Source: Acidobacteriota bacterium
GTDB lineage: Bacteria > Acidobacteriota > UBA6911 > RPQK01 > JAJDTT01
Direction: 5' to 3'
DNA: 64,000 nucleotides
Assembly: GCA_965209055.1 (NCBI GenBank)
Contig: OZ242374.1
Coordinates: 4,448,001-4,512,000 of the forward strand
Shown: one piece after another, positions 24,753 to 51,776 of the stretch
Layout of the letters: each line of letters begins with the position of its first letter
Position numbering within the stretch: position 1 is the stretch's first letter
Position numbers and translations under genes: made by a program
Notes under the pieces: generated by a model
Told to the model about the DNA's origin: nothing
Seen by the model: only the letters and a program-made list of their open reading frames with translations
The model's database searches: none

Positions 24753-24829
<77 letters not shown>

Positions 24830-37165: not shown

Positions 37166-39354
37166 GTCGACCTCGCCCCGGCGCGGCGCCGATTCACAAA
37201 GACCAGGACCAGGCAACCCAGCAGGCACAGCCCCGACAAGGAAGCTCCCAGAATGATCGACGCCGGACGATAGACGAACTGCACCTCGTGCTCGCCGGCC
37301 GGGAGGAATACGGCTCGCAACGCCCCGTGTGCGCGGTAGAGCCTGGCCGGTTCACCATCGACGGTCGCCTTCCATCCGGGGAAGTGGGCATCTCCGAAAA
37401 CCAGGTACGCGGCGCACGGCATTCGCGCTCGCGTCCTCACTTCATGGAGGGTCGTCTCCAGGAACCTGACCACGCCCTCCTGTCCACATCCTTCGGGCCG
37501 GGGCAAGAGATCTTCCCCGTCAGATGCGATGGTTTCCGTGTCGTGAACCGTCCATGCCCGAGGGGACGCGTCCGGGTTGAGAAAGACCTTCCACCCCGTC
37601 GAACTTCTGAAGACTTCGACTTGTGATTCGCGGACCCGATCCCTGGAAACCGTATACACCGTGTTGAGCATGAGCCGCCGCCGTTCCCAGTCACCCCGGA
37701 AGAAGTCCAGAACGTCGCGGCTGACCGAGGCCAGGTAGCCGTCCACCATCTCCAGCCCCTCCCAACCCCCGATGTTCGGTTTTCTTCCCTCGGTCTCGAT
37801 GTGGAACCGGAAGGGCTTGGGCCTCGACTTGAGATACTCGGCGACCTCGCCGAACTCCGCCAACCTGTCGAGATGCCCGGGGCGGGCGGGATCGTTTCGA
37901 TGGGACAGTGACGTCGAATGCGCCACTCCCATCTCGAACAACATCAGAGCCACGATTGCGAAACGCGCGGCCGGCGCCGAGATCGAACCGCGCCGGACGG
38001 CATGCAGCAGCGCCGCCAAGCCAAACGCCGCCATGGCGGCAATCACCACCTGGTCGCCCGAGTGTCGAGTCATCTTGCCGTCGAGATACCGGTAGAGGGT
38101 CAAAAGCCATGCCGACGCGCCAAACCCCACCAGAGCCCGCTGGATGGCCGGCAACCAGCGCCCGCCCGGATGAGACTTCCGGTCCCGAAGCAGTCGATCC
38201 ACGCCGAACGCCGCCAGGACGAAGACCGCAAACTGGAAAACGAACACGGCATGCGCCGGCGCCCGGGCCTTGTCAAACAGCGGAACGGCAGCGTAGACCC
38301 AACCGTGCAGGATCGAGAACGGCCCCAGCGAATAGGCCAGCGCGGCGAGCGCAATGCAGGAATAGACGCGGACCCAGCGCTCCCTCCAGCAGGCGCCGAC
38401 GGCGTAGATGGCCAACGAGAGGCACACGAGCCCGACGAAGGTGCTGACCTGGAAATGGGCGTGCGGAACCAGCATGCCCAGCAGTGTGACCGCGTACAGG
38501 CGCAGGCCGGACTGTGCGTAGTACGGCACATCCTGGCCCATGGTCAAGGGGCGCTCGGCGCCGACCCAGCGGTAGGATTCGGCGCCGTATTCGATGGCCG
38601 GCAACAGTTGCAGCGCCGCCGCCGCGAACGTCGTCCCCGCAATCACCACGTACAGTCCCGTGAAACCTGCCGCCTCGCGGTACGACCGGCGCAGACGCTC
38701 GAACAGGAAATAGAAGAACACCCCGGTAAGAGCCAGCAGGGCATACATGGGGTTCTGGTGATGGCCGCTCAGCAAAGCCATGCCGATGGCCCCGCCACAA
38801 AACACGGCGTTGGTCCACCGGCCCGAAGGATCCCGGGCCCGCTCCATCCGATGAAACAGCAGGAAGATCAATGGGATCCAGATGGCGCCGTTGACCTTCT
38901 GCGGCCAATTGGTAGCGGCGAGATACCCGCCGCACCCGAACGCCAACGCAGCCAGAACCGCCGCGTACCGGCTTCTTCCCAACTCGCGCACCAGGCCGTA
39001 CATGAAGAGCGCCGCCAACACGTGCATCAGCACGAAGTGCCAGTGGACCCAACGGAGCTGGATCCGGCCGTCCTTGAGCGGCGCCAGGAACAACGGCCAG
39101 TTGAGCGGAAATGCGCCGCCGGGTTGCATCTGTCCCAACAACGACTGGCCCGCCCAGTGGTAGGGGTCCCACATGGGGAAGATCCCCTCGTGCCATGCCT
39201 TGGCCTGCACCTGGTACCAGGGCAGGACCTGGTACGCCAGGTCCGGATTGTCGGCGAAGGTGAATTGCTGACTGAGGCTGAGCCTCCAGAAGAAAAGAAC
39301 GACCAGAATGAGGATGACGGCCAGTGGGAATCGATCGAATAAGTCCGACTTCAT
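37162..39354 (-). CDS. YfhO-family multi-pass membrane glycosyltransferase (GT-C)
   Basis: PMWDPYHWAG, many TM helices and C-terminal FPGWKATVDG...LPAGEHEVQFVYRP. Confidence 0.85.
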   Translation of the reverse strand: MKSDLFDRFPLAVILILVVLFFWRLSLSQQFTFADNPDLAYQVLPWYQVQAKAWHEGIFPMWDPYHWAGQSLLGQMQPGGAFPLNWPLFLAPLKDGRIQLRWVHWHFVLMHVLAALFMYGLVRELGRSRYAAVLAALAFGCGGYLAATNWPQKVNGAIWIPLIFLLFHRMERARDPSGRWTNAVFCGGAIGMALLSGHHQNPMYALLALTGVFFYFLFERLRRSYREAAGFTGLYVVIAGTTFAAAALQLLPAIEYGAESYRWVGAERPLTMGQDVPYYAQSGLRLYAVTLLGMLVPHAHFQVSTFVGLVCLSLAIYAVGACWRERWVRVYSCIALAALAYSLGPFSILHGWVYAAVPLFDKARAPAHAVFVFQFAVFVLAAFGVDRLLRDRKSHPGGRWLPAIQRALVGFGASAWLLTLYRYLDGKMTRHSGDQVVIAAMAAFGLAALLHAVRRGSISAPAARFAIVALMLFEMGVAHSTSLSHRNDPARPGHLDRLAEFGEVAEYLKSRPKPFRFHIETEGRKPNIGGWEGLEMVDGYLASVSRDVLDFFRGDWERRRLMLNTVYTVSRDRVRESQVEVFRSSTGWKVFLNPDASPRAWTVHDTETIASDGEDLLPRPEGCGQEGVVRFLETTLHEVRTRARMPCAAYLVFGDAHFPGWKATVDGEPARLYRAHGALRAVFLPAGEHEVQFVYRPASIILGASLSGLCLLGCLVLVFVNRRRAGARST

Positions 39355-39598
39355 GGCTCAAATGCCGGCGTCCCGGCCGGCGGCAGCACTCATGTTCCCA
39401 GCAAATCAAGCCGGCTTCGAAGACGCAAGCCATGACGAAGTTCGGGATTCTCCCGATCGTCTACTCGCACCGGCCTTCTTCGCCCATTCATGCGGATCAA
39501 ATGAGGATCGAGACTTCTTGCTCCTGGAACGACTTGCTATCTTGAATACGGTTCCGATCGCTGGTGTTCATGGGCGACCAAATCGAGATTGCCGAGCC

Positions 39599-40300
39599 AT
39601 GCCGGGCAAGCTGAGCGTCATCATTCCCGTCTACAACGAACGCGGCACGCTGGAGGAAGTGTTGAGCCGGGTCGCCCAGGCGCCCATGGAAAAGGAGGTG
39701 ATCGTCGTGGACGACGGCTCCGACGACGGGACCCGGGAGATCCTCGAACGCCTCTCGATGAATGCCGGCCGATCGGATCGACTCCGGATCGTCTTCCACA
39801 ATGGGAATCAGGGCAAGGGTGCGGCGGTGCGCACCGGAATCGCTCAAGCCACGGGCGATTGGATCCTGATTCAGGACGCCGACCTGGAATACGATCCTCG
39901 GGATTATCCGATGCTTTTGGCTCCGCTCCAGGACGGCCGCGCCGACGTGGTCTACGGCAGCCGCTTCCTGGATGGCGCCCATCGGACCCGGTACTTTCAG
40001 CACTACCTGGCCAACCGCTTCCTGACCTTCGTCTCGAACCTGATGACCAACCAGAAGCTGTCGGACATGGAAACCGGCTACAAGGTCTTTCGCCGGGAGG
40101 TCCTGGACGGCATCCGCCTCCGGTCGAACCGCTTCGAGATCGAACCCGAGATCACGGTCAAGTTGACTCGCCAGGGATATCGAATCCACGAGATTCCCAT
40201 CTCCTACAACAGCCGCTCCTACCGGGAAGGCAAGAAAATCACCTGGGTGGACGGGCTCAAGGCATTGTGGGCCCTGTTTCGCTACCGGTTCTTCTCGTAG
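39599..40300 (+). CDS. Glycosyltransferase family 2 (polyprenol-phosphate mannose synthase-like)
   Basis: SVIIPVYNE, VDDGSDDGT, GKGAA, QDADLEYDP, YGSRF and DMETGYK. Confidence 0.93.
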   Translation: MPGKLSVIIPVYNERGTLEEVLSRVAQAPMEKEVIVVDDGSDDGTREILERLSMNAGRSDRLRIVFHNGNQGKGAAVRTGIAQATGDWILIQDADLEYDPRDYPMLLAPLQDGRADVVYGSRFLDGAHRTRYFQHYLANRFLTFVSNLMTNQKLSDMETGYKVFRREVLDGIRLRSNRFEIEPEITVKLTRQGYRIHEIPISYNSRSYREGKKITWVDGLKALWALFRYRFFS

Positions 40301-40304
40301 GGGC

Positions 40305-40410
40305 AGGAGGGGGGACTGTTGGTCCCTTAATCCCCCCTCGGCGACTGGGAAGTGTAGAGGGGGACTCCGTCTCCCTAACCCCCCTTCGGCGGTAGGAAAA
40401 CCGCCGCTCC
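40305..40410. repeat. REP-like composite palindromic intergenic repeat (intact copy)
   Basis: aggaggggggactgttggtccc ... gggggactccgtctccc ... cggcggt-aggaaa-accgccg. Colinear with 47125-47146 joined to 49914-50019. Confidence 0.8.
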
Positions 40411-44799: not shown

Positions 44800-44824
44800 G
44801 AGGTGGGACTGTTAGTCCCCCACT
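44793..44824. repeat. REP-like repeat unit (uninterrupted copy of the element's target site)
   Basis: ggaataggaggtgggactgttagtcccccact. 30/32 identical to the reconstructed empty site at 47120/49918. Confidence 0.85.
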
Positions 44825-45821: not shown

Positions 45822-47120
45822 ATGATGAGACGTCCCTTCCAGTTGCTCGCCCCGACCGCGCTCGCCATCGTCATCGGCGCCTGCCAGCCGGCTCCCGAGC
45901 CAAAGACGCCATCCGACCCGCCCAAGATCCGTCTGGAGGTGGGTGATCCCGTGACGGTGCCTACCGGCCAATACCCGGGCCTGTCCTACGGGCCCCGGAT
46001 GGTGACCCTGCCGGACGGAAGAGTCCTGGTCGGCCGGGGAGAGATCGCCTTGACCACGACCGACTCGGGGGCGACATGGGACGTGGGCCCGGCCATCGCC
46101 AGGCCGCACCTGCTTCCTCTCCGGGACGGAAGCTATTTCTTCCTGAAGGGCCGCGGTTCCGCCACCGGCGAGCCGGGGCTGTTCTCCCTGGAAATGGCGC
46201 ACGTCCAGTCCCTGGATGAAAACGCCACCGAAGAACGGATCTCCTGGTCCCCCGCCACGGCGCGCGTCGACCGTTGGACGCCGCTGACGGCCGACAACGA
46301 GAGCGAAGTGGACTACCTGGGCGTCGGGGGCCCGTTCCTGGAGTTGGATGACGGGACCCTGCTGGCCGCCTGCTACGGGAATTTCAAGGGAGACACGGTG
46401 CCCATGGAGGGATTTCCCGCCACCAGCGGCCAGAAGTGGTTCAAGTACCGAACCTACCTGTTGTCCTCCAGCGACGGCGGCGCCACCTGGGAGTACCTCT
46501 CCACCATCGCCTACGACGGAGTCACGGGCCAGGAGAGCTTCTGCGAACCGGCCATGGTGGACCTTAGCGGCGGGGAGTTGTTGGCGGTGATGCGGACCGG
46601 CCGTTTCGCGCCCATGTTCCAGGTCCGTTCCCTGGACGGCGGCAATACCTGGCAGGAACCGGAGTCCATGCACATCCTGGGTCTGGCGCCCCAGATGGTC
46701 CTGCTGGAGAACGGCGCCCTCGTGTGCAGCTTCGGCTGGAGACGTCTGAAGGTGGGCTACGGCCATGGACTCAACGACGAGGGCGGACCGTACCCGGTCG
46801 CATTGCGGGATTACCAGGAACGCTATCTTCAAGACGTGGGCATCGAGAACCCGTCCGAAGCGGCCGGCGATTACGTGATGGTCAGCCTGGACAAGGGGAA
46901 GACCTGGTCCGAGCCCCGCAAGTTCGCCGAGCCCCTCACCTCCGGGTACACTCTCTTGGCCGCCACCGGACCCGACACCGTCCTGGTCATGTCAGCCAGA
47001 CTCACCATTCCGGGCCAGTCCCAGGAGCGTCACCTGGAGATCTGGGAGCGGGAATGGCCCCAGTGGTCCGACAAGTCCGTCGTGGTAAGAGTCGCCCGAA
47101 AGATCCGCGTCGTGCTGTAG
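45822..47120 (+). CDS. Sialidase/BNR (Asp-box) repeat lipoprotein
   Basis: Lipobox IGAC. Asp-boxes TTDSGATW, SSDGGATW, SLDGGNTW and SLDKGKTW. Confidence 0.85.
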   Translation: MMRRPFQLLAPTALAIVIGACQPAPEPKTPSDPPKIRLEVGDPVTVPTGQYPGLSYGPRMVTLPDGRVLVGRGEIALTTTDSGATWDVGPAIARPHLLPLRDGSYFFLKGRGSATGEPGLFSLEMAHVQSLDENATEERISWSPATARVDRWTPLTADNESEVDYLGVGGPFLELDDGTLLAACYGNFKGDTVPMEGFPATSGQKWFKYRTYLLSSSDGGATWEYLSTIAYDGVTGQESFCEPAMVDLSGGELLAVMRTGRFAPMFQVRSLDGGNTWQEPESMHILGLAPQMVLLENGALVCSFGWRRLKVGYGHGLNDEGGPYPVALRDYQERYLQDVGIENPSEAAGDYVMVSLDKGKTWSEPRKFAEPLTSGYTLLAATGPDTVLVMSARLTIPGQSQERHLEIWEREWPQWSDKSVVVRVARKIRVVL

Positions 47121-47393
47121 GAATAGGAGGGGGGACTGTTAGTCCCAACTGTCCCACAGTCAAAGACTACCGAACGTTAACGTTTTCAATATGTTACCGG
47201 GTTCTTCGCCGGACCGGTAAGGTGTTTGACTCCCCATGTTTGACGTGCTGAACAGGCAACAAACAGGCAGCCGAATCGGTTCCTGACAGCCGCCCCGCCC
47301 TTTTTTCCCCTTCCGGTGCCTGGCTCAGAGCCCTTATCAGTTAGGCTTTGCTGACCGTTTGGCTCCACCGCAGGACTCAGCCTGAGGCCGAAG

Positions 47394-47621
47394 GTGTCCG
47401 GCTTCGAACGGCTCGGCATTCCCAAGCATCAGCATCCCCGGCAAGTGTACTACGGCACGGTCGGGAAGACCCGGCACTACTTGGCGTTCAAACTGCCGAT
47501 TGCCGTCGAGGACGACAGGGCCGTCCTCGTCGGTGTCGATCCGGAGCCTGTGGCCACCAAGGGTCTGCGCTCCTGGATGGCGGCGCACCGGCGGTGGAGG
47601 AGCGCTCCGTCTCAGTTGTGA
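47394..47621 (+). pseudogene. Short hypothetical ORF, probably a gene fragment, inside the element
   Basis: 75-aa ORF with protein-like composition (RHYLAFKLPIAVEDDRAVLVGVDP). No RBS. Function not recognised. Confidence 0.4.
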
Positions 47622-47831
47622 TCGAGATGACCACTCTCGGCCGCCGCAAAGATTTTTGGAGACTCGTTTCGGGTGTGCGTCAAGGGGTCTCGCGCCCGAT
47701 CCGGGAGTGTGAATGGGACATGGGGGGTGGATTCACAAAAAGCGGTCCCGGTGATTCACACCTCCGCTTTCCCCGATCGTTTTTCCTTTCAGTCAGTTAC
47801 GGCCCCCTACCCCCGGACGCCGGCGCCCGCA

Positions 47832-47959
47832 CGGGGAGATCGGAGGTGGACGGGAGCGACCCCCCCTTTTTGCTGCCCGGTGCGGGCGCGGGGGTGTTGC
47901 GCGATTCACATCTGCGCAACACCCCCTGGGGGGGTCGCTCCCGTCTCAATTATCCTTGC
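47832..47959 (+). ncRNA. Candidate structured RNA/ssDNA element, copy A (three-way junction)
   Basis: 18-bp outer stem (47849-47866/47928-47945) encloses 6-bp and 13-bp hairpins. Covaries with copy B. Confidence 0.6.
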
Positions 47960-48405
47960 AGGAAGGCCCGGAGGAAGACCGTGGACCGGGTGGACCTGTC
48001 CCCCCAAACCCCCCAGTGGCGCCAGAACCCCTGGCGGCTCACATTGCCGCCAGTGAACCTGACGCTCGTCGCGGGTGGGCCAGCCCCCCCGAACCCCCCG
48101 GATGCGAAGAGACACATACCAACTGAAAATCCCTTCCAGAGAGCGCCGAGGCCCTGGGTTCGAGCCTCCCCACCGTGTGGAAAATCAGAGATTTCCCACA
48201 GGGTGCGTCGTTTTGCCGACCCTACAATCAGCGCCCCCCACCAAAGAAAGTCTGCTCCCGGCTGGAAGCCGTCCGAGACCGCGCGAGGGACCCATTCCTA
48301 TGGGACGCGACAAACAGGAGCGCGTGAAAAAGGGTCAGGCAGGGTGAGCCTGACTCTTTGAGGGCGCCACTGGGGGGTCTGGGGGGAAAGGTTCCCCCCG
48401 GTCCG

Positions 48406-48685
48406 TCATCCGTTCCGGCTGGCCGGCCTCGCGGACCAGGACGTCACCGGCCCGCCGTTGGAGGACCTCGACCACGGTCGCGGTCCAGGTCTCTTGGCCC
48501 CGCGTCGTGATCGGGATGGAGCCGCCGAGAAGGCGCTCGGGGAGCTTGCCGGTGGCCGCAAGGCAGGACGAACTCCAGGAGCCCTCTTCGAGCTTGTAGG
48601 GACTCCACGCCGACGATACGGAGCTTTCGCAGGTGTTTTGCCATCGACACCGGAGAGGTTGGACAGGGGCCGTGCTGGCGGCCAT
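48406..48685 (-). CDS. Small hypothetical protein (possibly degenerate), divergent from the integrase; boundaries approximate
   Basis: The segment SPYKLEEGSW...LPERLLGGSIPITTRGQETWTATVVEVLQR...VLVR looks like a small beta-domain. The ORF-track frame (48335-48685) runs on into the structured region, so the 3' boundary given here is not a stop codon. Confidence 0.35.
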
Positions 48686-48744
48686 GGACAGGTGGTACGA
48701 TTCGCCCCATGGCGAAGAACCCGGATCCGGAAAGGAGGAGATGC

Positions 48745-49956
48745 ATGGGCATCTACAAGGTGAAGGATCGCCGGGGGAGACGACGTTTCGTCGTCAGCAA
48801 GTACTGGCCGAACGGATCCGGTCGGCTCCGAATGTACGCCCCCAACTACCGGAGCGCACAGGCGCTTCAAACACGAATCGAGTCCAGCATCCTGGACGGC
48901 ACATGGAAGCAGCTCAAGGAGGAGCTCGCCGGCGGGAAACGCACCATCTGGACGGTCCGGAGCTTCTACGAGCGTTTCTTCGAGGAGTATTGCAAACCTC
49001 GTCTGCGCTCTTTGCGCCGGTACACGCTCTCGTTCAAGAGCCTCAACGCCATGCTGGGGAACATTCCCTTGAAGGAGTTCCAGCGCAAGGACCTCCACCG
49101 CTACGTCGCGAAACGGAAGGGGCAGGTCCAGCCGGCCACGGTGAACCGCGACATTGCGGCCCTCAGCAAGCTGTTTTCCTACGCGCTGGAGTGCGGGGAA
49201 GTGGACACGCACCCGCTGGTGAGATTCCCCAAACTCAAAGAACCCAAGAAGGTCTTCCGGCCCTTGACGGTTCAACAGTTCCGCGACCTGGTCGAGGCGG
49301 TGGACAACCCTTACCTGCAAGCCATGATCGCGGTGATCGGCGAGACGGGGATACGGAAAGGCGAAGCGTTGTCGCTCACCTGGAAACGGTTGGACCTGTC
49401 CCGGAGGCTGCTATGGGTGGAGTTCACCAAGGACGACGAGCCGAGGGAGATTCCGCTCTCGAAGTACGCTGCCGGATATCTGGCCGGGCTGGTTCGCTAC
49501 CTGAACATCCCTTACGTCTTCGTCAACACCCGGACGGGGACGAAATGGGTGAATCCCGACAAGCCTTTGCGCCGGGCCGCCGAGCGGGTGGGGTTGAAGG
49601 TCGGATTTCACGACCTGAGACGCTTCCGGTGCAGCCATTGGCTGATGCAGGGGGTGGACGTGAGGACGGTGCAGAAGCTGATGGGGCACTCATCGATCAG
49701 CACGACCATGCGCTACGCGGGTTACGTCAGTTCTCATGCACTCGCCAGCATACGGGAGGCACAGGCTACCGAAGACTCACAAATGCGACCGGCAACAAAC
49801 AGGCAACGGGCAGGAAATAGGGGAATGATTAGAGAAGAGCAGTGGCGTAAACCCTTGAAAACACAAGCACACGCCCCAAGCTCAGCAGGACAGAGCACGG
49901 GACTGTTAGTCCCCCATTCTTCAGTGTCGCTACTGGATACGATGGGTGGTAGGTGA
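48745..49956 (+). CDS. Tyrosine recombinase/phage-type integrase
   Basis: AGGAGG RBS. Catalytic R (GIRKGE), K (TKDD), HxxR (FHDLRR), H (LMGHSS) and Y (MRYA). PATVNRD core-binding motif. Confidence 0.93.
   Translation: MGIYKVKDRRGRRRFVVSKYWPNGSGRLRMYAPNYRSAQALQTRIESSILDGTWKQLKEELAGGKRTIWTVRSFYERFFEEYCKPRLRSLRRYTLSFKSLNAMLGNIPLKEFQRKDLHRYVAKRKGQVQPATVNRDIAALSKLFSYALECGEVDTHPLVRFPKLKEPKKVFRPLTVQQFRDLVEAVDNPYLQAMIAVIGETGIRKGEALSLTWKRLDLSRRLLWVEFTKDDEPREIPLSKYAAGYLAGLVRYLNIPYVFVNTRTGTKWVNPDKPLRRAAERVGLKVGFHDLRRFRCSHWLMQGVDVRTVQKLMGHSSISTTMRYAGYVSSHALASIREAQATEDSQMRPATNRQRAGNRGMIREEQWRKPLKTQAHAPSSAGQSTGLLVPHSSVSLLDTMGGR
49871..49914 (+). other. tRNA-like 5' half (acceptor 5' strand, D-arm, GTT anticodon arm) at the element's right end
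   Basis: ACGCCCCAAGCTCAGCAGGACAGAGC matches the local tRNA-Arg 5' end at 21/26 positions without gaps. D-stem GCTC/GAGC is intact. No T-arm follows. Confidence 0.7.
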
Positions 49957-50027
49957 AAGTGCATAGGGGGACTCCGTCCCCCTGCCCCCCCTGGTCGGCG
50001 ACAGGAAAGTCGCCGCTCCCTCGGCGG

Positions 50028-51776
50028 CTAGAAAGCCGCTGCTCCATCCGTTTCCGGTTCGTAGACGGGGTCGCCCCGATGAAGGCGGATGGCCACGCGG
50101 AGAGTCTGGTTCATGGCCCTTTGCGTCGGAGCGTGAGCCGCCAGATAACGGGCCGCTCCGACCATCACCAGATTCCTTTCCTCCCGATCCTCGGTCTCAC
50201 CGTATTGCCGAACGGCCGCCTCCAGCATCTGGAAGGTGTGGAAGTTGGCGTCTTCCCGCATCAGGCTCTCGGTCAAGGCCGAGATGAGCGGGCCGCCGGA
50301 CCCGCCGCCTTCCAGGTAGGTCCAGACCATCTGTCCGGCCCGGTCCGTCTCCTGCTGGTGGTTCATGAGTGTCAGGAGGCGGGACCGGATCGAATTCCCC
50401 CCGGATTCCGCGCCGGCCGCCGCCCGGCTTGAAGGCAGTCTTGCGGGCGGGATGTTGAAGAAACGGTCCAGGTAGACCCGCATGGCTCCGTGAAACACGC
50501 CCCTTGTCAGGTCCGGCGACTGGTTGCGTTTAAGCAGTTGATGCAGGGCATTGGAATAGGTGAAGGTGTGAAGGACGGCGATCCAGTCGGCCAACTCGTT
50601 CTGGACGTGAAAGTGGACGATGCGCAGCGCCGCGGCATAGGCCACCGCCTGGGCCAACTCCACCGGTTGGGCGCCCCCACGCAACGCCGCCAGCAGTGCC
50701 TCGATGGGGGTGTGAGGATCGTCGCTGAAAAGGGTTTCGGTGAAGTCCTGCGGCTTGGTCCAGATCTTCCCCTGCCCCGATTCCAGAGCCTCGGGAATCT
50801 GAGCCACGGCCTGGCGCAGCACCGGCACCAGATCGATGGGGTGCCGCCACGGGTTCCTCTCCTCGCTTCGAACCGCCAGGCACAGAGGCCGGATCAGGGC
50901 GGGCAGCAACCGGCCGGCATGTTCCCAGCCGATGCGGTCCAGCAGTTCGAAAGCCTTGTTCACGAAGTCGATGACGTGACCCCCATCCAGGTATACGTGG
51001 TCCGTGGCCGCGGCCCCGACCAGGTCGGTCAGTTGCGCGCTCGTCATCCCCTTGTGGACGGCGGTCAGAAGGCAGCGCTCGGCGCCCTCGGTGCTGCGGA
51101 CCTCCACGAAGTAGCGGAACCAGCGTTTGAGATGCTCTGCCGGGATTTCCTGATTTCGAAGGGGCGGGATCTCGAATTTGGGGGTGCGGCCGGCGCAGTC
51201 CCGGGCGATGTGGACCAGGCCATGGTACAGGGGCGGGATCCGCTCCGTCCCCTCCAGGAGGTCGCAGACATTGGCCATGGCGCTGAGAATGGTGAGGCCG
51301 GAACTCCAGTCCCGGCGATGCCGGACGCCGTAGAGCGCGCCCTGCCGCGCGACCTCATGGTGGGAGACGCCGCTGTGGTGCAGTCCCACCACCGACTTGC
51401 CCATGATCAAGCTGAGGTTCTGCTCCATTCCCTCCTGGAGCCGCCGGCTCCAGCGCTGGACCGGATCGACCGGCGGCGGCGTGACGTCCAGGTAGACCTC
51501 TCCGCCCCGGACCTCCACACGGAAGGAATCCACGTCGTCCGCGAACAGGTTGAAGGTGCATCCGCTCACCAGGTCGAAGCGCGCATGGTGCCAGTAGCAG
51601 GTGAGGATGCCGTCCTCCACGGTGCCGCGGTGCAGTGGAAAACCCATGTGCGGACAGCGGTTGTCGACGGCGCGCAGCTCTCCGTCGTGGTCGAAGATCA
51701 CGATGGGGACCGGACCCTTGGACACCACCAGGGGACTCCTGGACCGAACTTCCTCCAGCGATCCGACATGAATCAT
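50028..51776 (-). CDS. Rieske (2Fe-2S) domain protein with large C-terminal helical region
   Basis: CPHMGFPL...TCYWHHARFD Rieske motif. C-terminal GHVIDF, HTFTY and FHTFQ motifs. Confidence 0.85.
   Translation of the reverse strand: MIHVGSLEEVRSRSPLVVSKGPVPIVIFDHDGELRAVDNRCPHMGFPLHRGTVEDGILTCYWHHARFDLVSGCTFNLFADDVDSFRVEVRGGEVYLDVTPPPVDPVQRWSRRLQEGMEQNLSLIMGKSVVGLHHSGVSHHEVARQGALYGVRHRRDWSSGLTILSAMANVCDLLEGTERIPPLYHGLVHIARDCAGRTPKFEIPPLRNQEIPAEHLKRWFRYFVEVRSTEGAERCLLTAVHKGMTSAQLTDLVGAAATDHVYLDGGHVIDFVNKAFELLDRIGWEHAGRLLPALIRPLCLAVRSEERNPWRHPIDLVPVLRQAVAQIPEALESGQGKIWTKPQDFTETLFSDDPHTPIEALLAALRGGAQPVELAQAVAYAAALRIVHFHVQNELADWIAVLHTFTYSNALHQLLKRNQSPDLTRGVFHGAMRVYLDRFFNIPPARLPSSRAAAGAESGGNSIRSRLLTLMNHQQETDRAGQMVWTYLEGGGSGGPLISALTESLMREDANFHTFQMLEAAVRQYGETEDREERNLVMVGAARYLAAHAPTQRAMNQTLRVAIRLHRGDPVYEPETDGAAAF

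Follow-up and report, generated by a model that had tools for sequence, protein, structure and literature searches.

A tRNA-Arg(UCU)-like stretch at the end of an integrase-bearing element that occupies REP-like hairpins: the probable relic of an earlier target

Integrases classically land in tRNA genes, which is commonly put down to a symmetric stem and a 7-nt loop that give ready-made sites for binding and strand exchange. An anticodon-loop class of tRNA-targeting tyrosine integrases was reportedly described by Williams in 2002 (NAR 30:866), and islands that leave a 5' tDNA fragment are said to have been presented by Zhao and Williams in 2002 (J Bacteriol 184:859) as cases of "reversed target orientation". 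Some insertion sequences (ISs) target the hairpins of repetitive extragenic palindromes (REPs), while in systems of REPs and REP-associated tyrosine transposases (RAYTs) the hairpin repeats flank, and are mobilised by, a Y1 HUH transposase. In integron attC recombination, a tyrosine recombinase acts on hairpin-forming sites. The present analysis concerns a 43-nt tRNA-like stretch at the right end of a small element that carries a tyrosine integrase gene (int) and lies in a REP-like hairpin of an Acidobacteriota bacterium. The stretch occupies positions 49871-49913 of the window, which is the whole piece of DNA analysed (64,000 nt of contig OZ242374.1).

According to a review (PMC6563490, citing Zhao and Williams 2002), it is considerably rarer for an element to recombine with the 5' part of a tRNA gene. 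For anticodon-centred sites the Islander paper (PMC4383910) gives a number of 2083; its islands have a 5' tDNA fragment in 159 cases and a 3' fragment in 3760. The stretch analysed here is very probably one half of an attachment site, the half borne by an element with an integrase and a conjugative ancestry that was retargeted from tRNA-Arg(UCU) to REPs. The source genome (6.08 Mb) is referred to as G000; the related genomes named below are G001, G003, G007, G010, G021, G023 and G035.

Resemblance of the stretch to tRNA-Arg(UCU)

The 43-mer occurs once in the window when up to three mismatches are allowed. Without gaps, it matches the genome's own tRNA-Arg(UCU) at 33/43 positions, and at 22/26 over the acceptor strand and D arm. 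A first interpretation, made from the letters of the window and here called the sequence-only reading, had counted 21/26 over the same part against the tRNA-Arg of the window; the same count is obtained with that gene, tRNA-Arg(CCG) at 24753-24829. It had also seen a likeness to tRNA-Asn in the GTT of the loop. This likeness is withdrawn: two ARAGORN calls of tRNA-Asn match the stretch at 15/43 and 10/43, compared with 33/43 for tRNA-Arg(UCU), and the GTT belongs to the REP loop, which dictates the loop of the stretch. A tRNA-Asn origin is rejected on these counts; judged by alignment, the source tRNA is Arg(UCU) and not Asn.

The 5' 42 nt of tRNA-Arg(UCU) were compared with all ~12 million positions on both strands of the genome. 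The window copy scores 33/42. At least 27/42 is reached at 36 positions: nine genuine tRNA genes, and 27 right ends that belong to the element family. The background maximum is 26/42 (two positions at 26, forty at 25). Since the window copy lies well above this genome-wide maximum, the stretch is considered homologous to tRNA-Arg(UCU).

The element belongs to a family with 26 full-length integrase copies in the genome (87-100% amino acid identity) plus remnants. One copy runs off a contig end, leaving 25 for analysis. All copies conserve the integrase module (window 48692-49915) and a left-end module, which is found 2.6-25 kb upstream of each int. The tRNA-like stretch is present in 25/25 analysable copies, at a constant distance from int and next to 25 different flanks. 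Its ungapped identity to tRNA-Arg(UCU) is 28-34/43 across these copies; several read CCCGTAGCTCAGTTGGACAGAGCAACGGA, which is one base off the tRNA. The motif AGCTCAG..GGA.AGAGC, which the sequence-only reading expected after integrase homologues, is found in the 25 copies here and in the REP-type copies of four other genomes. One twin (genome 6054121-6056916, 2796 nt) is 100% identical to the window element, 1.56 Mb away and in unlike flanks. Mobility appears to be recent because two 2796-nt copies are fully identical in different surroundings, and the integrase is probably active now.

Tests of tRNA structure give little. At the gathering threshold of 29 bits, the tRNA covariance model RF00005 has no hit to the window stretch, which does not qualify as a full-cloverleaf tRNA. 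ARAGORN makes no tRNA call at 49871-49913, and at E<=10 RF00005 finds nothing in the 401-nt context around the stretch. With the stretch cut at 49916, RF00005 gives a 3'-truncated match of 11.0 bits over model positions 1-44 (E 4.8 over 4227 families). In a pooled RF00005 search of 20 sources, a displaced 5' fragment known to be genuine reaches 19.9 bits, while genuine tRNA 5' parts cut alike reach 29.3-31.1 bits; 0/9 other element ends and 0/6 arbitrary controls are among the matches listed, the floor of which is ~15 bits. The local match that the sequence-only reading expected from this model is thus absent in the natural context and weak in the cut one. Because the covariance-model score is weak, the claim of a tRNA relic rests on homology and comparison and not on the model.

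Folded like a cloverleaf, 49871-49960 does no better than shuffled sequences (z -1.06; 23/200 shuffles fold equally well), and the fold draws on the host flank, which differs in the twin copy. A promoter scan of 49600-50100 found no sigma-70-like site; the sigma-70 model may not be that of this host.

The recombination core and its hairpin targets

The loop CTGTTAG falls at 49903-49909 in the tRNA register, and the RF00005 alignment places the core GGGACTGTTAGTCCC at the position of the anticodon arm. The junction alignments agree with this, as the sequence-only reading had it. For the junction comparison, each of the 25 elements was paired with its own left end and both junctions were aligned in the tRNA register. 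The block of identity between attL and attR is 15 nt in the eight class A copies (classes are defined below), 14 nt in the seven of class B, 11 nt in the five of class D/D2 and 7-10 nt in the five of class C/C2. In 25/25 it includes linear positions 33-39 (positions 32-38 of the anticodon loop); for four elements the whole block is those 7 nt. The only block common to both ends of every copy is therefore the 7 nt at the anticodon-loop position, and strand exchange most likely takes place within them.

Four core classes correspond to four host REP-like hairpin targets. The loop is CTGTTAG in class A (8 copies, with the window copy), CTAACAG in class B (7 copies), TTTCCTA in class C (4 copies) with TTTCCAA in C2 (1 copy), and TTTCCAA in class D (4 copies) with TTTCTAA in D2 (1 copy). 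A and B represent one hairpin in opposite orientations: compared with the class A REP, the class B loop is reverse-complemented, the right flank is the reverse complement of the REP left flank, and the left flank is likewise that of the right. Classes C and D correspond to other hairpins. One copy's loop, TTTCTAA, is a single base from the CTTCTAA of the tRNA. Each class agrees with its own hairpin; the arm thus covaries with the target, and it is the loop's asymmetric centre that sets the orientation of insertion. The covariation for which the sequence-only reading had asked is thus found in 25 elements.

Nearly one and the same integrase is used for a tRNA anticodon arm, for a REP hairpin in both directions and for at least two further REP hairpins. 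Target choice might be set mainly by attachment-site DNA (the 7-nt loop and the innermost stem pairs) and not by the protein; this is offered tentatively, and the opposite is about as easy to believe. An apparent inversion of ~572 kb fits an exchange at two junctions, the left one of an A element and the right one of an inverted B element, whose overlaps are alike if both are read along one strand.

The core is strongly over-represented. The window holds three exact copies of GGGACTGTTAGTCCC and one with one mismatch, against 0.14 expected; the genome holds 57, of which 37 are exact and 20 have one mismatch, and a reversed-pattern control gives 0. Hairpins are also found where the element is absent. 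G001 has 18 exact A/B cores and retains the integrase as a 65-aa (amino acid) remnant only. G003 has 34 exact D-type hairpins and, of this integrase, the tRNA-targeting form only. In G000, 48 exact D-type 19-mers compare with five D-type elements. The locus of G001 that is orthologous to that of the window element is unoccupied: a solo REP with the same core and right flank lies ahead of the same Rieske gene. As hairpins are present without the element, the elements have adapted to pre-existing REPs.

The genome has two Y1_Tnp matches, one of which follows tandem D-type hairpins. This RAYT-like Y1 transposase gene (30.8 bits; G000:C1:1142807-1143830) lies after two such hairpins in tandem and beside the right end of the D2 element. 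Because they are in tandem and directly precede a RAYT-like Y1 transposase gene, the D-type hairpins are probably REPs proper. In G000 and in relatives (window 47120-47131 and loci L042-L048), the upstream gene often has its stop codon TAG inside the conserved left flank of the REP (TAGGAGG...). Further hairpin repeat families (GGGGGACTCCGTCCCCC; GGCGAC.GGAAAGTCGCC-type) lie close together in the intergenic region of the right end, at window 49965-50030, with tens of genome copies; several hairpin families of these types have the loop TTTCC(T/A)A or its complement.

Tyrosine integrases of related genomes and the origin of the stretch

The integrase was searched for in 41 related genomes, and 3' flanks were read at 30 loci. 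At six of these, int is followed by a complete, co-oriented tRNA gene. In G003 (81% amino acid identity) this is a tRNA-Arg(UCU) identical to that of G000, after the same spacer. G035 (71%) has two such loci, with tRNA-Arg(UCG) and tRNA-Arg(UCU); G010 (71%) has tRNA-Arg(UCG), G021 (36%) has tRNA-Arg(CCG), and in G023 an int remnant precedes tRNA-Thr(CGU). Twelve loci have the classical arrangement, with a tRNA facing int by its 3' end (27-50% identity where the high-scoring segment pair spanned most of the integrase). The classical arrangement is also found at one more locus, and another has a 3' tRNA fragment only. REP-type ends are found at five loci in four other genomes of the genus and at two loci of G000. 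The remaining three loci are broken remnants.

In G003, tRNA positions 1-42 are found once more 47 kb further left, joined to a left end that is homologous to the one of the window element. ARAGORN does not call this displaced 5' fragment as a tRNA. The junction identity block in G003 is tRNA positions 1-42. Since the tRNA beside int is intact and the displaced copy is 47 kb away, the 5' 42 nt have been supplied by the element. The 47-kb element encodes VirB8 (3.3e-10) and a TrwB/TraG-D coupling protein (7.1e-11); because of these two genes, it looks like a conjugative element, judged by its protein families. In G035 and G010, gene order suggests the same reversed arrangement. A search with blastn-short within 40 kb found no far-end fragment in G003, G035 or G010.

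A quick maximum likelihood tree was made of 47 integrases. The 30 REP-linked integrases form one clade (support of 96 in the Shimodaira-Hasegawa-like approximate likelihood ratio test); its sister is G003 (98), followed by G035/G010 (100). All of these are nested inside the classical 3'-side tRNA integrases. Classes A and B are intermixed, and one C-type copy is placed among the D-type copies. Descent from an integrase that used an anticodon loop and supplied the 5' half, as the sequence-only reading proposed, is supported by this tree and by the int-tRNA pair and displaced fragment of G003.

A separate observation concerns tRNA-Arg(UCG) in G035 (L007/L035, G035:C1:5131109-5133487) and G010 (L008/L037, G010:C21:320539-322503). 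A classical integrase (47-55%) lies on the 3' side of this gene and a reversed integrase (71%) on its 5' side; both halves of the gene appear to be occupied in the two genomes.

The history proposed for the window element is as follows. An ancestor would have integrated in the anticodon loop of tRNA-Arg(UCU) in an unusual orientation, with the element upstream of the crossover and supplying positions 1-42; this would have regenerated an intact tRNA beside the integrase gene. In this genus, the core (anticodon stem and 7-nt overlap loop) would have been rewritten to match host REP-like hairpins. The rewritten element would now insert into hairpins, giving ~26 copies of 2.6-25 kb. Having ceased to be part of any tRNA, the acceptor strand and D arm would persist as a decaying relic between the arm-type sites and the core, where they would still serve as a spacer.

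Several points limit the case for this history. The excision product is not seen in public data, which were assembled contigs only; the joints found in these contigs run from 47146 to 49925-49996, with sides of 22-26 nt and foreign letters between; other REP copies explain them, and they speak neither for excision nor against it. An exact-pattern search of G003, G035 and G010 found a displaced 5' fragment in G003 only. RF00005 gives the window copy no more than 11.0 bits, and the nine other element ends of the pooled search are not among its listed matches. The tree is a quick one, with a single-matrix model, an arbitrary distant outgroup and long-branch warnings among the classical sequences. 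Finally, the D-arm block GGACAGAG is kept at 88% or more across the copies, so some of the relic may retain a role.

The last point bears on an unlikely alternative, in which the tRNA-like part still works, for instance by spacing or bending the attachment site or binding protein there, or by giving the integrase transcript a tRNA-like structure that tRNA-processing enzymes recognise. The block of D loop and 3' D stem is as well conserved in the 25 copies as the coding region. Changes at D-stem pair 10-26 preserve pairing (A-T in two copies, T-G in one), and the distance from arm-type motif to core is fixed by the stretch in all copies. Decay is nevertheless evident: the D stem is broken in 11/25 copies, and the acceptor strand, left without a partner, agrees with the tRNA at 1-6/7 positions. 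The scores of RF00005, far below those of real halves or unreported, and a fold that relies on host flank also speak against function. An accidental likeness between a tRNA and the flank of a GC-rich hairpin would agree with the low covariance-model score and with the lack of a hit in the untruncated context; it is nonetheless exceedingly improbable, given the gap between 33/42 and the genome-wide background and the complete tRNA that relatives carry at the same place.

In ordinary tRNA-targeted islands, the 5' half beside the element end is chromosomal, and the stretch might accordingly be the remnant of a tRNA gene split by insertion at this locus. This is very improbable, as the stretch moves with int to 25 loci with unrelated flanks, is identical in the twin 1.56 Mb away and is missing from the unoccupied G001 locus, which has a REP and no tRNA half. 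It is equally hard to credit that an element specific for a tRNA accidentally entered a secondary site resembling an anticodon stem-loop. The REP hairpin and the anticodon arm of tRNA-Arg(UCU) do share GGAC-T..TA-.TCC (11/17 positions). However, in the 15 class A/B elements the core of the element's own end is that of the REP and not that of the tRNA, and both junctions carry it. Specificity is regular, every insertion matching the hairpin of its class (A, 8; B, 7; C-type, 5; D-type, 5), and the genome's tRNA-Arg(UCU) (307704-307778) is unoccupied, the nearest int copy being ~40 kb off. The sequence-only reading had allowed for either retargeting or mis-integration; the same core at both junctions in 25/25 copies favours retargeting, and mis-integration is dropped.

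Organisation of the element and comparison with known systems

The features of the window element are listed in the table. Direct repeats of the core bound a 2.78-kb element that is the smallest form of the family, consisting of the left end, a truncated gene remnant and int; this remnant would correspond to the first gene of the ancestral conjugative element. No conjugation genes are found in the 2.78 kb, in which int is the only intact gene.

Features of the window element and related sites (window coordinates)
Feature	Position	Strand	Remarks
Solo REP core, one mismatch	40312..40326	+	Found by core pattern search
Solo REP core, unoccupied target type	44805..44819	+	No element module adjoining
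Left core copy (15 nt, attL side)	47132..47146	+	Preceded by host REP left flank; element starts at 47147
Conserved left-end module, P' arm	47147..47320	+	GGCAACAAACAGGCA at 47255-47269; 30 homologous left ends in genome; G003 left end homologous
Truncated gene remnant	47394..47621	+	Homologous to middle of 314-aa protein of 47-kb G003 element; no Pfam family
Tyrosine integrase open reading frame, 415 aa	48709..49956	+	PF00589, 2.2e-26, residues 186-337
Putative arm-type motif GGCAACAAACAGGCA, P arm	49791..49805	+	Inside integrase 3' end, ~95 nt before core
Probable relic of tRNA-Arg(UCU) positions 1-28	49871..49898	+	Acceptor 5' strand 49871-49877, D arm 49880-49896; from comparison, RF00005 register
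Right core copy, probable recombination site at anticodon-arm position	49899..49913	+	7-nt loop/overlap 49903-49909; attL/attR blocks in 25/25
Host REP right flank (CCATTCTTC...), outside element	49914..49935	.	Flank shared with unoccupied G001 locus; flank of twin differs

The family-conserved part of the integrase ends near residue 372 (~49824). The reading frame continues through the tRNA-like stretch only in the window copy and its identical twin; the other copies stop after about residue 372. Near 49815, the window copy and the twin are shorter by one base than the remaining 23 copies of the alignment. Two other open reading frames were set aside: 48633-49820 has no Pfam family and is in the wrong frame for the integrase, and 47348-48361, which is in another frame than the gene remnant and rich in Arg and Pro, looks spurious.

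The 15-mer GGCAACAAACAGGCA has 46 exact copies in the genome, and all 46 are at integrase 3' ends or 108 nt inside left ends. Analogous tandem direct repeats occupy the same place in distant integrase homologues. Placed in this way on both arms, the repeats have the layout of arm-type sites in a heterobivalent (lambda-type) attachment site, and they probably bind the integrase.

Other observations concern the left module, apparent tRNA genes and the host neighbourhood. Window 47587-47968, in the left module, has dozens of partial matches (70-88%) away from int, far more than int itself has. Two of these partial copies coincide with odd 85-nt 'tRNA-Val' genes in the ARAGORN calls. ARAGORN also makes six calls of an 88-nt tRNA-Leu(UAA) in G000 (e.g. 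2104898-2104985), one of them inside the class B element 2095926-2106507. Its tRNA-Ser(CGA) call at window 40126-40214 (-) has no Rfam match at gathering level, lies inside a glycosyltransferase reading frame (39308-40300) and is probably false. An FG-GAP-like gene, the REP and the Rieske gene are neighbours in five of six same-genus genomes examined, the exception being G007. In G000, the FG-GAP gene abuts a class B right end at 3.925 Mb (C1:3925219-3926587), and the Rieske gene abuts the right end of the class A window element. This gene order is what the ~572 kb inversion named above would account for.

If target choice is indeed set mainly by attachment-site DNA, changing a few loop bases would suffice to turn the integrase of a conjugative element away from one tRNA gene and towards dozens of dispersed hairpins; such redirection would yield an IS-like, genome-rearranging element. 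Under the proposed history, one family would present a series from the classical 3'-side tRNA integrase through the reversed 5'-side tRNA-Arg integrase to REP hairpins used in tRNA register, with the unused front half of the tRNA as a dated fossil left behind. It would offer a testable system for how site-specific integrases gain new targets. It would also show the overlap alone setting orientation, and how a single-copy island turns into an element whose many copies offer numerous sites at which recombination can rearrange the genome. The literature search found nothing on tyrosine-integrase elements that target REP hairpins or keep a tRNA 5' part once they no longer use the tRNA; supplementary tables (e.g. 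the Islander lists) might hold relatives.

The G003 element resembles the islands with 5' fragments: int is upstream of and co-oriented with the tRNA, the 5' part is supplied by the element, and a displaced fragment is at the far end. G035 and G010 show the gene order only. The window copy retains the element-borne 5' part only; it differs in that no 3' half follows, the core is a REP hairpin and there are ~26 copies per genome. No intact tRNA is regenerated at the window junction, where REP flank comes after the core; one is regenerated in G003, G035, G010, G021 and G023. The window element fails the defining test of a tRNA island, yet it works like one in register and geometry.

With the anticodon-loop class of integrases, the family shares a tyrosine recombinase and a crossover block centred on a 7-nt loop flanked by an inverted stem. 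Its distant homologues (35-55% identity) have the classical arrangement, with a tRNA facing int by its 3' end. In contrast, the close homologues are reversed, and the present targets are hairpins that are not tRNA genes.

A dispersed host hairpin repeat as landing site is common to this family, REP-targeting ISs and REP/RAYT systems. The enzyme differs, as it is a lambda-type tyrosine integrase and not a DDE, DEDD or HUH transposase; the window element encodes no Y1 HUH transposase. Insertion here differs as well, being conservative and leaving a core of 7-15 nt at both ends.

Integron attC recombination is similar in its tyrosine recombinase, its hairpin-forming sites and its units bounded by the same core. 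Pfam assigns no integron-specific family to the integrase, for which no test for the IntI-specific insertion was made. The family described here differs from integrons in that identity at both junctions is double-stranded, arm-type motifs lie ~95-108 nt away and each unit carries its own integrase.

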